A stretch of 64,000 nt of DNA from a virus (lineage: Duplodnaviria > Caudoviricetes), in the IMG/VR virus record IMGVR_UViG_3300023263_000002, positions 1 to 64,000 of that record. One strand, written 5' to 3'. How positions within the stretch are numbered: position 1 is the stretch's first letter; every line of letters begins with the position of its first letter. The translations under genes and the position numbers were made by a program. Of the stretch, positions 3,422-25,516 are shown piece after piece. The notes beneath the pieces were generated by a model. That model was not told the DNA's origin and did not search any database. It saw only the letters and a list, made by a program, of their open reading frames with translations.

Positions 3422-4729
3422 CTAACGCCCGAATCTTTTCGCGCGTGCCGACTTTCCTCCAGATGACTTACTCTCCTTAGAAGAGGATTTCTTTGCAGGG
3501 CGCTCGTCCTCCTCCTCGTCCTCGTCATCCTCATCTTCATCGTCGTCGTCGCGGCTGCGTGAAGACTTTTTAGAGGAAGTTTTGCCAGCCTTTTTCTTAG
3601 GCTGCTCATCCTCATCCTCTTCATCTTCGTCGTCATCCTCGTCGTCGTCATCGCGACTACGCTTGGAGGATTTCTTCTTCGGACGTTCATCTTCCTCGTC
3701 CTCATCATCATCGTCATCATCGTCCCGAGAAGACTTTTTGGAGGACTTCTTCTTCGGACGCTCGTCCTCCTCCTCATCCTCATCGTCGTCATCATCACGA
3801 CGCTTGGCCGGCTTCTTCTTTTTGGCGGGACGCTCATCTTCGTCCTCGTCTTCATCTTCATCGAACGGAGGATCCTCGTCCTCATCGTCCTCGTCCTCAT
3901 CGTCGTCATCGTCACGACGCTTCTTCTTGTCGGTTTTCTTCTCAGCCTTGCCGGCCTTTTTCTTCTTCGGACGCTCGTCTTCGTCCTCGTCCTCATCTTC
4001 GTCTTCATCGGTCTCCGGCTCGGCGCCAGAGATGATAGCCTTCAGATGATCGTAGCTGTAATACTGCAGGACCGAAGGGATAGGCGTCTCGCGGATCTGC
4101 TCAAGGATCTGATCCTGCACTTCCTCGTCATCAGAGATCGGGCTAGGATCGCTATCGATCCGGTGGCCGAAGTACTTCGTGTTGAGAGCCTGGCCCCGCT
4201 TCTGGATCGTGATGTCTCGGCCATCATCCGGATGGTCAATCGCAACCACCTTGCCCGAACGCTTGTGCGTGCACAGAGCAGCGATCGCCTGATCCATCGA
4301 CCAACTCATGTCAATAATCTTCGGACCTGTGCTCTCATCATCACGATCGATCGCCCAGAAAAGGTAACGCTGCTTCGCGGATAGCTGCGCAGCCTCCTCC
4401 TTGTCGCCGGCATCGCGAGCGTCTTTGGCGGCATCGCAGATCGGGCACTTCTCCTTCTTCATCTGCGCCGGGCAAAGGTACGTGCCGTTGTTGGCGCCGA
4501 CATAAGGATGGACAAAAACCTCCAGCCCGTAGTATTCAGCGTTGTCCCAAGTCGGGGGCAGGATGCGGAAGGTATTGTCGCCGTTCTTGAATTTGAACAG
4601 TTCAACGCCGTTCTTGAAGATGCCGTCAAAGCGGCTGCCGGTCTGTTCGGCCTGTCGCTTCAGCCGATCAGCACTTGTGGCCTTGTAAACAAAGCCACTA
4701 CCTTTTTTCTTCTTCTTGTCCTTCGCCAT
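3422..4729 (-). CDS. single-stranded DNA-binding protein (T4 gp32-like) with long acidic/basic disordered tail
   Basis: FRILPP, H..C...CPIC zinc motif, DG.DI.I.K.G; position between UvsY-like gene and recA. Confidence 0.75.
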   Translation of the reverse strand: MAKDKKKKKGSGFVYKATSADRLKRQAEQTGSRFDGIFKNGVELFKFKNGDNTFRILPPTWDNAEYYGLEVFVHPYVGANNGTYLCPAQMKKEKCPICDAAKDARDAGDKEEAAQLSAKQRYLFWAIDRDDESTGPKIIDMSWSMDQAIAALCTHKRSGKVVAIDHPDDGRDITIQKRGQALNTKYFGHRIDSDPSPISDDEEVQDQILEQIRETPIPSVLQYYSYDHLKAIISGAEPETDEDEDEDEDEDERPKKKKAGKAEKKTDKKKRRDDDDDEDEDDEDEDPPFDEDEDEDEDERPAKKKKPAKRRDDDDDEDEEEDERPKKKSSKKSSRDDDDDDDEDEEDERPKKKSSKRSRDDDDEDDDEDEEDEDEQPKKKAGKTSSKKSSRSRDDDDEDEDDEDEEEDERPAKKSSSKESKSSGGKSARAKRFGR

Positions 4730-21054: not shown

Positions 21055-21291
21055 CTAAGAATCTCTTCGGTACTTGTTGATCTCCTTTCCTCTCGCGAAT
21101 CGCCGGACTGCTGCAACCATATTCTTGATACAGCGAGGCTGTGGCTGGCTGCGACCGATAAAGGTTACGACGCGATCGCCGACAACAATGGCGTCGTGGT
21201 TTGTCTTCTGAACCAGGTGCCACTTCAATCGATTTCGAACAAGTTCTGTGCGAACTGGCTGAGGTAGTCCTGGATGGCTTCTCATCTTCAT
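21055..21291 (-). CDS. hypothetical basic protein
   Basis: GGGAG RBS just after hammerhead 1. Confidence 0.6.
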   Translation of the reverse strand: MKMRSHPGLPQPVRTELVRNRLKWHLVQKTNHDAIVVGDRVVTFIGRSQPQPRCIKNMVAAVRRFARGKEINKYRRDS

Positions 21292-21301
21292 GTGTACTCC
21301 C

Positions 21302-21378
21302 TAAGCTGCCTTATCAAGCCGGGGGCGCTTATCCCTCAGCGACCGTCGGGGAAGATTTCTCCTCCCCTAGGTTTCGGC
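21302..21378 (-). ncRNA. type II hammerhead ribozyme 1 (U3-A8 core variant)
   Basis: GCC-GAAA-CC..stem III..GG-UC-GCUG..CGGC-UUGAUAA-GGC; loop UAAGC complementary to 3' GCUUA. Confidence 0.88.
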
Positions 21379-21609
21379 TTATTCGTGGCCTCCACCGCCA
21401 TGCTCTTCTTCGCTGTCATCGCACGCGAGCATCACTGCGAACCAAATCGTGCCCGTCCCTTTGCTTTTTCCAAGGTCTCTGACAGTCTGCGGAAACTTCT
21501 TCTCGTAGCTGCGCATCTTTGCATACAGCTCAGCGACCGCGTCGGAGTCTTGGTGGCTGCGAATAAGGTTGGCGATGTCCTGCATAATTCCTGCGAGCTG
21601 ATTGGCCAT
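21379..21609 (-). CDS. hypothetical protein
   Basis: AAGGAG RBS; stop codon abuts hammerhead 1. Confidence 0.65.
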   Translation of the reverse strand: MANQLAGIMQDIANLIRSHQDSDAVAELYAKMRSYEKKFPQTVRDLGKSKGTGTIWFAVMLACDDSEEEHGGGGHE

Positions 21610-21668
21610 TTTCTTTCTCCTTGCTGATACGTATGATGGCCCCGGATTGTCGCCCGGGGCCGGTATTC

Positions 21669-21989
21669 TTAGAGGGTGCCTTTCGCCTTACGCTTGTAGT
21701 AGGTGCTCTTGCTGATTCCGAGAACCTCCCAGGGCTTCTGCTTGGTCTCGGGAGCAACCTTCTCCTCCGTGACTTCGACGACGGGCGCGGCCGGCACGAG
21801 CTTCTCCGTCACCGTCTTTACTGGCTTGCTGCCCTTCGGCGTCCACCAGCTGAACCAAGAGCTGGCTCCAGCGGCCGTGTATCCGAGTTCCTTGATCGCG
21901 TAGGCCAGGGCCGCTTTCCGGTCCATCGTGTTGAAGGCGGTATGCAGCTTGGCGGTACGCTCTTTCCGGTGGATGGTCATCGTGGTCAT
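21669..21989 (-). CDS. small protein with C-terminal HTH
   Basis: KPWEVLGISKSTYYKRK. Confidence 0.7.
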   Translation of the reverse strand: MTTMTIHRKERTAKLHTAFNTMDRKAALAYAIKELGYTAAGASSWFSWWTPKGSKPVKTVTEKLVPAAPVVEVTEEKVAPETKQKPWEVLGISKSTYYKRKAKGTL

Positions 21990-22018
21990 TGTCCTTCTCC
22001 TGTGTGTTTGTATTTGTC

Positions 22019-22060
22019 TGCCTATGCATTCTTTGTAGTACGAAGCGTCTACTTACGCAA
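22019..22060 (-). promoter_or_regulatory. early promoter, conserved family copy
   Basis: TTGCGT...TACTACAAAGAATGCATAGGCA. Confidence 0.6.
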
Positions 22061-22144
22061 CGGTAAATTTTATATCAGCTAAAAAAATTTTAGCCCACCG
22101 TTGACAGTGTGAAAGGAGGGCCACGACGGGCCCTCCTAGTTGAC

Positions 22145-23218
22145 TTACGCGACTACCTTCAGGTGGGCGCGCTTGGCTGCGTGGTTCTGCAGACGCTTCT
22201 CCGACCACTGGCGCTTGGGCTTGGAAGCCATCGCGGCAGCAAGCTCCGGATCAGCGGCGATAGCGGCTTTCTTGGCGGCCATGGTAGCAAGGCGCTTGGC
22301 AACAATCGCTGCCTTCTTCGCCTGCTTCTCAGCGTCCATCTTCTCGGCCGCATCCTGCTTCTTCTTCAAGGTGGCCTTGCGACGCTTCACGGCCAGGTTC
22401 TTCTTGGCCTCGATCGCGGCAGCTTCGCGGTCCTGCTTCGCCTCTACAAGAGCGGCGATCTTCTCTTCCTTCTCGCTAACCTTCTGAGCGGCGCGAGCAA
22501 TCCGCTGCTTGGCTGCCTTCCGGCGGGCCTTACCGAGGCTGTACGCGTAGCCGATCATCCGGCAAGCCGAGCCGGACAGCAGGCTCATGAGCTCCATCAT
22601 CAGCATCTGGAAGATGACGAGCGACATGGCCGTCGCCGTGTCAACCTTCTGACCGGAGACACCAATCATGGTCTGCGCGAACAGGGCCTTACCCGACATC
22701 TCGTCGGTGGTGGCAACTTCCTGCTTCGCGGTCGCGGTCTTGATCTCGGCCTCGAGGGTCTCGACGCGGGCATTCAACTTCTCGCATTTCGGGCCGCAGC
22801 CCTTCTTCTTCGACTCCGCCAGCGCCATCTCACGAGCGGTAGCTAGGGAAGCGCGAAGATCTGCGAGGTTCGTGGCGCCGATCGTCTCAACCTTCTTGGA
22901 AGTCATGTCCGTGACGAACTTGGCACCGAACATGTCAGCAGTGGCGTAGAAGGCGCAAGCGAAAGAAGCGACAACCGCCAGCCAGTACAGCGAGCGGAGC
23001 AGCATGGACTTGCCAACGGCGTGCATCGTGATCGGAAGGACCATCTTCACGATGTCGCCTAGGCCGAGCATAATCGCAGCAACCAGGCCCATCTGCAGGC
23101 CAACTGCGACGTTAACGTATAGGCTCAAGCCGCCAGCGGCAAAAACCAGGGTGAAAAGAACCGTGCCGATCGTCCAAGCTGTGGCGGCGGACACGAACTT
23201 CAGAGTAGATTTCTTCAT
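22145..23218 (-). CDS. membrane protein with coiled coil and Lys/Ala-rich tail
   Basis: several hydrophobic helices, GCGPKC, ACAGGAG RBS; start moved to 23218. Confidence 0.75.
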   Translation of the reverse strand: MKKSTLKFVSAATAWTIGTVLFTLVFAAGGLSLYVNVAVGLQMGLVAAIMLGLGDIVKMVLPITMHAVGKSMLLRSLYWLAVVASFACAFYATADMFGAKFVTDMTSKKVETIGATNLADLRASLATAREMALAESKKKGCGPKCEKLNARVETLEAEIKTATAKQEVATTDEMSGKALFAQTMIGVSGQKVDTATAMSLVIFQMLMMELMSLLSGSACRMIGYAYSLGKARRKAAKQRIARAAQKVSEKEEKIAALVEAKQDREAAAIEAKKNLAVKRRKATLKKKQDAAEKMDAEKQAKKAAIVAKRLATMAAKKAAIAADPELAAAMASKPKRQWSEKRLQNHAAKRAHLKVVA

Positions 23219-23238
23219 GACAAACTCCTGTGTGTTTT

Positions 23239-23317
23239 TAGGATGCCTCATCGGGCCGGGAGCTCCTACCTCTCGGCGACCATCGGGGGAAGCTTTCACC
23301 TCCCCCTAGGTTTCGGC
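23239..23317 (-). ncRNA. type II hammerhead ribozyme 2
   Basis: GCC-GAAA-CC..GG-UC-GCCG..CGGC-CCGAUGA-GGC; loop UAGGA complementary to 3' UCCUA. Confidence 0.88.
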
Positions 23318-23725
23318 TTACTTCAGAACCAGGCTACCAACCTCGATCCAGAAGGCCCGTTTCGCATCCTCGATCAAGTTGCTCGAGGCGGAAGTGGACC
23401 GGCTGCTCAACCGCATGTCCGAGAGGACATTGGTGAGAGCCGTTTTCCGAATCAGCTCGGGGATCGCTGCACCATCCTCGAGATTCTTAAGATAATGCAG
23501 CAGGATCGCTGCCTCGTTGGCGGCGGTAGCTGCCACCGGCAGATCTACCGAATGCCACGCCAACCAACTCATCTGATTGTGGAAGGTTACGTCTCCCTTC
23601 TCTTTCGCGTACGCTACGTCGGCCTCGACGTTTTTGGTGAGTTCGAGCAGCAGACCATTATACGTCTTGGCCTTGCAGTTTAGGAAGCGACGAAGTCCAC
23701 CAACGTCTTTAGCGCCTTCAAACAT
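23318..23725 (-). CDS. hypothetical protein
   Basis: ACAGGA RBS; lies between hammerheads 3 and 2. Confidence 0.65.
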   Translation of the reverse strand: MFEGAKDVGGLRRFLNCKAKTYNGLLLELTKNVEADVAYAKEKGDVTFHNQMSWLAWHSVDLPVAATAANEAAILLHYLKNLEDGAAIPELIRKTALTNVLSDMRLSSRSTSASSNLIEDAKRAFWIEVGSLVLK

Positions 23726-23744
23726 TGTATCAAGTCCTGTGATT

Positions 23745-23819
23745 TGAGATGCCTCATCGGGCCGGGGTCTCTCACACCTCAGCGACCTTCGGGGCAATTG
23801 CTTGCCCCTAGGTTTCGGC
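23745..23819 (-). ncRNA. type II hammerhead ribozyme 3
   Basis: GCC-GAAA-CC..GG-UC-GCUG..CGGC-CCGAUGA-GGC; loop UGAGA complementary to 3' UCUCA. Confidence 0.88.
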
Positions 23820-24116
23820 TTACTGCTTCGGATACTTCTCTTCGAAGTACTTTCTCAAGCGCTGGCCCTCAGCAGCGTTAAAAGCTGCGCGGTTGCGATA
23901 AAACTGCACCAGGTTTTGATCTCCGTCGAGTTCTGCGTGCTTGGCTAGGTTTTCGTACTTGGCGGCCTTCTTTTCGGCTCCGTCGGCCCAACCAGCCACC
24001 GTCGCGCATTTGATAGCCTTCCAAGTTATCTTGGTCCCGCATCTCTCATCCACATCAGATGCCATTGCCGGCGAAGCTGCGAGGATTGTGAAGAGAATAA
24101 CTAGGGCCTTTTTCAT
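23820..24116 (-). CDS. small secreted/periplasmic protein
   Basis: signal peptide MKKALVILFTILAASPAMA; ACAGGAG RBS. Confidence 0.7.
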   Translation of the reverse strand: MKKALVILFTILAASPAMASDVDERCGTKITWKAIKCATVAGWADGAEKKAAKYENLAKHAELDGDQNLVQFYRNRAAFNAAEGQRLRKYFEEKYPKQ

Positions 24117-24134
24117 TTACTACTCCTGTGTGTC

Positions 24135-24205
24135 GAGCTGCCTTATCAAGCCGGGTAGCTCATTTCCCGACGACCTCCGAAGAATTTCTTCTCCGAGGTT
24201 TCGGC
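24135..24205 (-). ncRNA. type II hammerhead ribozyme 4 (U3-A8 core variant)
   Basis: GCC-GAAA-CCUCGGA..UUCGGAGG-UC-GUCGGG..CCCGGC-UUGAUAA-GGC; loop GAGCU complementary to 3' AGCUC. Confidence 0.88.
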
Positions 24206-24430
24206 TTTTCTTCTTCTCCAGCGGAGCGCCTCGCGGCCTCTTGGCTGGTAGGGCTAAGACGAAGGATTTCCTTGCGCTTCTCTTGATGTTCCCAGCTTCC
24301 GCTTCGGTCGGTGCCTGGTTCCCCTTTTCGGGTGCCTAGTCCTCTCTAGGCTCTTCTCAAGTTGCGGTCGGGCCTTTCTGCCTTCCCTTTAGGAGTTCGG
24401 AGGGGCCTTTCGGCTCTTGCTCCTCATTTC
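24206..24430 (-). ncRNA. candidate structured ncRNA between a promoter and hammerhead 4
   Basis: no credible ORF; purine-rich with hairpins GCC-GAAA-GGC, CCC-GAAAA-GGG, GCC-GCGA-GGC, GCCUAG..CUAGGC. Confidence 0.5.
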
Positions 24431-24614
24431 CTATGATTACAATATAGACATTTATTTGTATGACGCAATAGGTTTTATAAGATATAAAGCTGAAACCTAA
24501 AAAAATTTGGTGGAACATGGTCACAATTTTGTGAACTACAAAGCTTCTTTGCCACCAACTTCTTCTCTGCTCTGCTTATGCATTGTATATAGTAAGACAT
24601 CTACAATACTGCAA
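24429..24614 (-). promoter_or_regulatory. two tandem early promoter copies (24429-24468, 24573-24614)
   Basis: TTGCGT...CTATAT...CATAGGA and TTGCAG...CTATATACAATGCATAAGCA. Confidence 0.6.
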
Positions 24615-25474: not shown

Positions 25475-25516
25475 TGCCTACTCATTATGTGTAAGCTAAA
25501 GCGCATACAAACGCAA
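25475..25516 (-). promoter_or_regulatory. early promoter, conserved family copy
   Basis: TTGCGT...TTTAGCTTACACATAATGAGTAGGCA. Confidence 0.7.

Follow-up and report, generated by a model that had tools for sequence, protein, structure and literature searches.

Type II hammerhead ribozymes with a pseudoknot between loop I and the 3' tail, a stem II of 2 base pairs (bp) and a U3-A8 covariation in the core were described by Perreault et al. (2011, PLoS Comput Biol, PMC3088659), who also found them clustered around individual prophage genes. Three such arrays cleave in vitro, and the array of Agrobacterium tumefaciens also cleaves in Escherichia coli; the processing of phage transcripts into single-gene RNAs was proposed in the same work, as was the formation of circular or spliced RNAs, and the latter was tested and not detected (Perreault et al. 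2011). According to a 2019 review, the purpose of bacterial and phage hammerheads needs further work. Here we describe four elements, HH1 to HH4, on the minus strand of a 64,000-nucleotide (nt) stretch of DNA, hereafter the window, which covers positions 1 to 64,000 of the IMG/VR virus record IMGVR_UViG_3300023263_000002 (Duplodnaviria; Caudoviricetes). With high confidence, sequence and fold identify all four as type II hammerheads, and we consider it probable that they lie in the spacers of a replication-gene region as genuine ribozymes whose self-cleavage cuts the transcripts into single-gene RNAs. This interpretation of hammerhead arrays was already published in 2011, and the locus is a new example that leaves the concept unchanged.

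The locus resembles the prophage arrays of A. tumefaciens (a triple array around ardA), Azorhizobium caulinodans and Clostridium scindens in topology, in the pseudoknot, in the placement around single small genes, in the U3-A8 covariation and in the proposed transcript-cutting role (Perreault et al. 2011). It differs from them in belonging to a distinct uncultivated phage lineage, in having a non-canonical core in every copy and in having one copy that follows a structured leader; moreover, the prophage arrays have been assayed for cleavage, whereas cleavage of the copies described here is predicted from sequence. A further described relative is HHphage of the haloviruses HF1/HF2, also a core variant a few nt upstream of an early-region gene of a tailed virus, for which a transcript 5' end has been mapped near the cut site (Perreault et al. 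2011). Unlike the elements of the window, HHphage occurs only once, has 2 nt inserted in its core and comes from an archaeal, high-salt setting.

Identity and structure of the four elements

From 5' to 3', each element consists of the 5' strand of stem II (GCC), GAAA, a long stem III hairpin with a GNRA loop, then U, C and the cut site, followed by the stem I hairpin, a 7-nt core, the 3' strand of stem II (GGC), one A and 5 nt complementary to loop I (Table 1). Stems I and III are capped by loops and stem II is open in the sequence, in the folds and in the structure alignments to the Rfam type II hammerhead family (RF02276, Hammerhead_II), as expected of the type II topology. The open stem II has 3 bp, reading GCC/GGC in all copies, and the 5' halves of the copies are nearly identical. 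The pseudoknot between loop I and the 3' tail comprises 5-8 bp in a common register in every copy, compared with the at least 4 bp that characterize type II. A recount from the sequence agrees with the element boundaries and the four cut sites of the preliminary description of this DNA, which had also placed three copies immediately 3' of a TAA stop codon and every copy just before the next ribosome-binding site. Both placements hold, HH1 being the one copy that follows no stop codon; a Shine-Dalgarno sequence and ATG lie 5-18 nt further on in all four cases, and the 3' tail of HH4 adjoins the GGGAG ribosome-binding site of the next open reading frame (ORF), ORF F.

A loose hammerhead pattern matches four times in the window against 0.00 matches expected from 100 shuffles, and a still looser pattern adds only one match, which is unrelated. 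Minimum-free-energy folding returns the three-way junction without constraints in three of the four copies. When the four copies are aligned on their own, 96.2% of cells pair, the pseudoknot is 100% paired with three of its five pairs changed on both sides, and the 3-8 pair of the core is CG in two copies and UA in the other two.

The Rfam result is divided. At the gathering threshold, which for RF02276 is 37 bits and represents a curated search cut-off rather than a biological feature, no match was found in the window. In E-value mode, all four copies are the top matches to RF02276 and align over the full length of the model (positions 1-66) with the expected structure, at 23.4 (HH1), 22.8, 22.7 (HH2) and 19.1 (HH4) bits. 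Thus the type II assignment of the preliminary description, which had proposed this search as a check, is supported by full-length best matches, but none of the copies reaches the cut-off. The low scores are likely due to inserts of 21-27 nt in stem III, core substitutions and pseudoknot sequences that differ from those of the family seed, and the same cut-off also misses most members of other viral hammerhead arrays. With a covariance model built from the four copies, HH1 scores 81 bits, and this model found no further copy in the whole record of 100,945 bp. An Rfam family search of the phage's own genome, which missed the four copies, gave an 11.8-bit match at 3596-3684 that was disregarded.

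Related hammerheads and covariation

Pattern scans and protein look-ups recovered a set of related phage contigs (L134/L142, L178, L179, L181-L183, L185/L186 and L187). L134 is syntenic with the window, its flanking proteins being only 43-58% identical, and the DNA of L178 is approximately 80-90% identical. The covariance model identified 28 hammerheads in these contigs, and 24 of them, from eight related contigs, are distinct. Across these 24, the share of cells filled by standard pairs is 95.9%, and both sides are changed in 17 of 26 pairs; none of 500 shuffles reached the observed pairing and covariation, and sliding the partners against each other lowered pairing to 34-47%. Stems II and III are paired in approximately 99-100% of cells, with compensatory changes from GCC/GGC to GUC/GAC in stem II and from C-G to U-A at the base of stem III. 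Pairing of stem I reaches only 88%, because of a recurrent A·C mismatch. The pseudoknot is paired in 97.5% of cells and four of its five pairs covary, which bears out its covariation as first noticed in the four copies, whose core and pseudoknot sequences had been quoted correctly. The core 3-8 pair is CG in 14 homologs, UA in nine and UG in one. These full-length model matches and the covariation among the distinct homologs together support the identification of the elements as type II hammerheads well, and they are strong evidence from comparative sequence that the whole fold, including the tertiary contact, is under selection.

Each copy has its own pattern of conservation. In HH1, stem II (GCC/GGC to GUC/GAC), stem III and the pseudoknot all vary with compensation among the orthologs of L134, L178, L182, L185 and L187. 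The 3' half of HH2, which comprises stem I, the core and the pseudoknot, is identical in seven related sequences, and its stem III varies with compensation. Among the orthologs of HH3, the pseudoknot changes from UAGGA/UCCUA to UGGGA/UCCCG. HH4 is not found at the corresponding position in L134, and HH4-type copies occur 3' of a different ORF of 52-53 amino acids (aa) in L178, L179, L181, L182 and L185.

In HH2, HH3 and HH4, stem I has the A·C mismatch at its fifth pair (approximately 23765/23751, 23259/23245 and 21322/21308); the mismatch recurs in 12 of 24 clade copies, the rest having G-C or U-A; it may be a protonated A+·C wobble. Two further structural ideas were discarded: by inspection, the internal loop of stem III fits neither a kink-turn nor a UAA/GAN motif, and the complementarity for a possible switch at HH1, in which the purine-rich linker before HH1 would pair alternatively with stem III, is lost in L134.

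Core variants

The catalytic nucleotides G5, A6, A9, G12-A14, A15.1-U16.1 and C17 are present in all four copies and in all 24 distinct homologs. Each copy of the window deviates at one or two of the 13 positions that define the family, and each of these deviations has previously been seen in nature. The preliminary description had read the two core types as a covariation that preserves the 3-8 pair. The pair is indeed preserved; in CCGAUGA, however, position 4, which is normally invariant, is changed as well (U4C). Of 23 distinct clade sequences, 11 have the core CCGAUGA (U4C), two have CCGAAGA (U4C with A at N7; HH3 orthologs) and one has UCGAUGA (U3·G8 plus C4; an HH3 ortholog), while UUGAUAA (U3-A8) and UUGAAUAA (U3-A8 with a 1-nt insertion) occur in four each and the canonical core, as CUGAAGA, in one. 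C4 is kept in every ortholog of HH2 and HH3.

The 8-nt core UUGAAUAA is located at 6131-6223 in L134, 3000-3092 in L187, 270-366 and 3474-3571 in L185, and 2729-2820 in L179. It occurs in two paralog families, HH1-type and HH4-type, and a one-off defect is therefore unlikely.

An independent survey of viral contigs used a pattern in which core positions 3 and 4 were free, stem II was fixed as GCC/GGC and stems passed a crude filter. Of the candidates, 73 had well-formed stems; their core is CUGAUGA in 62 cases, CCGAUGA in nine and another sequence in only two. Within the scope of GCC/GGC stem II, U4C thus looks like the commonest natural core variant of phage type II hammerheads.

A putative structured leader and a variable gene slot

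Upstream of HH1 lies a conserved, covarying non-coding leader in place of an ORF. Nowhere else is the region as well conserved: identity to L178 is 94-100% in the leader, compared with 72-90% in the adjacent coding sequence. Indels of 14 and 10 nt between lineages disfavor a coding role. In the consensus fold of seven leader sequences, six of them distinct, 46 pairs are predicted, pairing reaches 97.1% and ten pairs are changed on both sides; as this structure was derived from the alignment used for scoring and the sequences are few, the figures are suggestive only. Several leader hairpins show compensatory changes, such as GCC-GAAA-GGC to GUC-GAAA-GAC. The leader matches no Rfam family at E ≤ 10. 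A leader 15-mer has 26 matches in viral contigs, of which blastn shows homology for L134 and L142 only, and an nhmmer search with the leader alignment over more than 180 loci did not find it outside this phage clade. We regard the leader as a candidate for a new structured phage RNA with a hammerhead-made 3' end.

Which gene lies between HH1 and HH2 differs among relatives. The slot holds the 98-aa ORF A in the phage of the window and in L182, and an unrelated 43-aa ORF in L178. In L181 and L183, ORF A is absent and a single chimeric hammerhead, with HH1-type stem III, HH2-type stem I, core and pseudoknot and the junction at the cleavage site, stands in place of HH1 and HH2 (Table 1). HH4 is also mobile relative to its neighboring genes among the relatives. 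These arrangements fit a role of the hammerhead units as interchangeable joints between gene cassettes; the chimera is a single case, which ordinary recombination explains.

Proposed function and alternatives

During transcription, each spacer would fold into the three-way junction and the RNA would cut itself after C17 of GUC, as the motif and the published assays on similar arrays suggest. The upstream RNA would retain its stop codon, and its 3' end would be formed by the stem III hairpin with its GNRA loop and a terminal 2',3'-cyclic phosphate. On the downstream RNA, a 5'-OH would precede the stem I hairpin, after which would come the remnant of the core, the pseudoknot tail and the ribosome-binding site. 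The outcome would be single-gene RNAs protected at their ends by hairpins and provided with a standard 5' leader, so that the expression and decay of each gene would be uncoupled from those of its neighbors. HH1 would instead split the structured leader from the first gene, creating the 3' end of a released RNA of approximately 264 nt. A 5'-OH end is a poor entry site for RNase E, which is stimulated by a 5'-monophosphate. In synthetic insulators of the RiboJ type, which are engineered parts, a hammerhead removes the upstream RNA and leaves a hairpin and a defined leader before the ribosome-binding site, making expression independent of the upstream context; for the phage locus, we infer a comparable insulation by analogy only. 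The stop codon directly adjoins stem II; the 5' part of the ribozyme would therefore be covered for a short time by a ribosome terminating there, and upstream translation could modulate folding.

Several observations weigh against this interpretation. None of the four copies has the canonical core CUGAUGA and all four score below the RF02276 cut-off. The U4C change of HH2 and HH3 is also known from a viroid, where, as cited by Perreault et al. (2011) from Ambros and Flores (1998), activity was considerably reduced in vitro and sufficient in vivo; the viroid hammerhead is of type III and serves genome processing, whereas here C4 is fixed among orthologs of DNA phages. Two Aedes entries among the RNAs that a figure gives as inactive match both Aedes primer sets of the paper's table, and one of these primer sets carries U4C (Perreault et al. 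2011). Four relatives have the 1-nt core insertion, and an insertion after A6 leads to low activity (Perreault et al. 2011). The promoters, terminators and early timing that would frame the processing are motif- and position-level readings. By contrast, U3-A8 is a natural and active covariation (Perreault et al. 2011). By analogy with these variants, HH1 and HH4 are likely to cleave, and cleavage of HH2 and HH3 is plausible, possibly at a slower rate; since the latter two carry U4C, their efficient cleavage is an assumption.

A broader reading would make the locus a modular RNA-unit system, in which a leader of an undescribed class ends at HH1, hammerhead units act as insulating joints where gene cassettes are acquired, lost or exchanged while RNA processing is retained, and non-canonical cores are the selected norm that tunes cleavage. 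It draws together the leader, the variable slot and the core variants, and we put it forward tentatively, as possible rather than probable.

Somewhat less likely again is that the ribozymes are real and also slow or conditional, the non-canonical cores tuning the rate so that cutting is partial or depends on conditions such as Mg2+ or terminating ribosomes. Only one of the distinct clade members has a canonical core, and C4 persists in all HH2 and HH3 orthologs while the surrounding helices change with compensation. Among the unrelated viral type II hammerheads of the survey, CCGAUGA also recurs and only two copies have any other non-consensus core; some of the U4C copies share arrays with canonical ones scoring above the Rfam cut-off, and it has been suggested that slower phage variants may be regulated (Perreault et al. 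2011). However, the persistence of C4 is equally expected if the change is near-neutral once the pseudoknot stabilizes the fold, and the limits of the survey in stem II and stem filtering apply to this argument as well.

The preferred reading of active processing must further be set against one in which the RNAs are catalytically dead and kept for their shape, as stabilizing hairpins, translation-insulating spacers or joints for cassette swaps. The non-consensus state of every core in the window would suit such RNAs, as would the different contents of the ORF A slot in close relatives and the replacement of two elements by one chimera. Yet across substantial divergence there is strict conservation of the other catalytic nucleotides, the GUC site and the tertiary pseudoknot, none of which a hairpin or a joint would need, and U3-A8 variants are among those reported to be active; we consider loss of catalysis improbable. 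Still more improbable is that a doubly cut gene RNA is circularized, or its flanks spliced, after neighboring halves rebuild a nicked hammerhead, with the ribozyme or an RtcB-type ligase resealing the nick. Hybrid ribozymes would be structurally possible, as the copies share a GCC/GGC stem II and near-identical 5' halves, and the 3' half contains loop I together with its pseudoknot partner; the chimera of L181 and L183 is joined at the cleavage site. On the other hand, such products were sought in similar arrays without success (Perreault et al. 2011), a 3-bp stem II closing a loop of 300-400 nt would be weak, the ORFs end in normal stop codons and so imply no rolling-circle translation, and the chimera, a single case at the DNA level, is also explained by recombination. 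Thus the circularization of the ORFs between the hammerheads, which had been raised for this locus, is unsupported. Chance resemblance or a generic intergenic repeat, to which the sub-threshold Rfam scores might point, is effectively refuted by the 0.00 matches expected, the full-length model matches and the covariation in all helices and the pseudoknot.

With four ribozymes, two putative short transcription units and documented non-canonical cores, the locus offers a clean natural test case for transcript processing by hammerheads. The features under selection can be read from orthologs in at least five diverged lineages, and close relatives differ only in the gene between two ribozymes. It could therefore tell whether U4C hammerheads with a pseudoknot are fully competent, whether cleavage sets the stability of single-gene RNAs, and whether a ribozyme ends a structured phage non-coding RNA. 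Confirmation of the leader RNA, of core tuning or of the cassette behavior would make it somewhat more interesting.

Transcription units and genomic setting

The preliminary description had assumed one early polycistron for all four hammerheads. This is probably not the case, since a terminator-like hairpin and a promoter-like motif set HH1-HH3 apart from HH4; judging from such motifs and hairpins, there appear to be two transcription units, with HH4 in the separate one (Table 1). Early timing we infer only from the position in the replication-gene region. The promoter-like motif is recurrent, with six copies on the minus strand between 19.2 and 25.5 kb, ending near 25475, 25046, 24573, 22019, 20994 and 19265. 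It consists of TTGCG, approximately 20 nt, TTACACAT and then AATG[A/C][A/G]TAGGCAG, stands before small genes and is kept in L134; the motif upstream of the leader is a variant of it. A consensus sigma-70 scan did not flag these motifs, and their spacing is unlike that of a standard sigma-70 promoter. In addition, at 24629-24492 on the minus strand, a promoter-like motif is followed approximately 70-80 nt later by a strong hairpin and T-run (24548-24492). The interval holds no ORF, and the segment, which is poorly conserved in L134, may represent a small RNA unit.

Table 1. Positions of the hammerheads and associated features. Coordinates refer to the window unless a related contig is named.
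Feature	Position	Strand	Description
HH1	24135..24205	minus	core UUGAUAA (U3-A8); predicted cut 3' of C24172; preceded by the non-coding leader, no stop codon
HH2	23745..23819	minus	core CCGAUGA (U4C); predicted cut 3' of C23784; directly after TAA of ORF A
HH3	23239..23317	minus	core CCGAUGA (U4C); predicted cut 3' of C23278; directly after TAA of ORF B
HH4	21302..21378	minus	core UUGAUAA; predicted cut 3' of C21341; directly after TAA of ORF E
Leader	24206..24435 (~230 nt)	minus	purine-rich, structured; 5' end placed by the promoter-like motif at 24468-24441
Leader homologs	L134 6214-6457; L178 3319-3564; L182 2771-3022; L181 3160-3411; L185 50-279; L187 2764-3009		
Chimeric hammerhead	L181 3402-3492; L183 3402-3492		compare L182 3013-3492 and window 23745-24205
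ORF A	23820..24116	minus	98 aa; signal-peptide-like N-terminus; no family match; between HH1 and HH2
ORF B	23318..23725	minus	135 aa; no family match; between HH2 and HH3
ORF C	22145..23218	minus	357 aa; hydrophobic N-terminal part, Lys/Ala-rich tail; downstream of HH3
ORF E	21379..21609	minus	76 aa; no family match; immediately upstream of HH4
ORF F	21055..21291	minus	78 aa; immediately downstream of HH4
Promoter-like motif	24468-24441	minus	TTGCGT-16 nt-TATATT; 5' of the leader
Terminator-like hairpin	22136-22115	minus	3' of ORF C
Promoter-like motif	22075-22019	minus	between HH1-HH3 and HH4
Putative unit I		minus	promoter-like motif 24468-24441, leader, HH1, ORF A, HH2, ORF B, HH3, ORF C, hairpin 22136-22115
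Putative unit II		minus	motif 22075-22019, ORF D, hairpin, ORF E, HH4, ORF F

The complete virus record, of which the window is a part, is rated 99% complete. It encodes a tape-measure protein and a tail-fiber protein, DnaB-type and SNF2-type helicases, a family A DNA polymerase, a clamp-like factor, a single-strand DNA-binding protein, a ribonucleotide reductase and a DpdA-like transglycosylase. The neighborhood of the hammerheads consists of small ORFs without known function, flanked by the SNF2 helicase and the polymerase. A blastn search of cultured phages with the 6-kb region gave no match, and the best cultured-phage protein match of the helicase has 31% identity; by sequence comparison, the host of the array is an uncultivated tailed phage lineage of approximately 101 kb without a close cultured relative. 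No tRNA or tmRNA genes were found in the window.

Searches of Pfam, PHROGs and NCBIfam with the hammerhead-flanked ORFs returned no informative family. ORF B has homologs of 57-83% identity in the related contigs, and a query of viral contigs with ORF B found no related loci. ORF C matches phrog_3793 weakly; a protein atlas returned only unnamed viral clusters for it, and its alignment recovered only the L134 contig among metagenome contigs.

Hammerheads in other viruses

Larger arrays occur in other viral contigs, with ten pattern matches in approximately 5 kb of L022 (IMGVR_UViG_3300038412_000035) and five in L043. In the arrays of L022, L043 and L095, only a subset scores above the Rfam cut-off, and U4C copies stand beside canonical ones. 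Moreover, many unrelated viral type II hammerheads (L125-L143, L039 and L100) share a stem III base with an asymmetric internal loop, reading CCUA-GGGG on the 5' side and CCCC-GA(U/C/A)-GG on the 3' side, of which the search imposed the 5' side only. This internal loop may be a conserved tertiary or protein contact.

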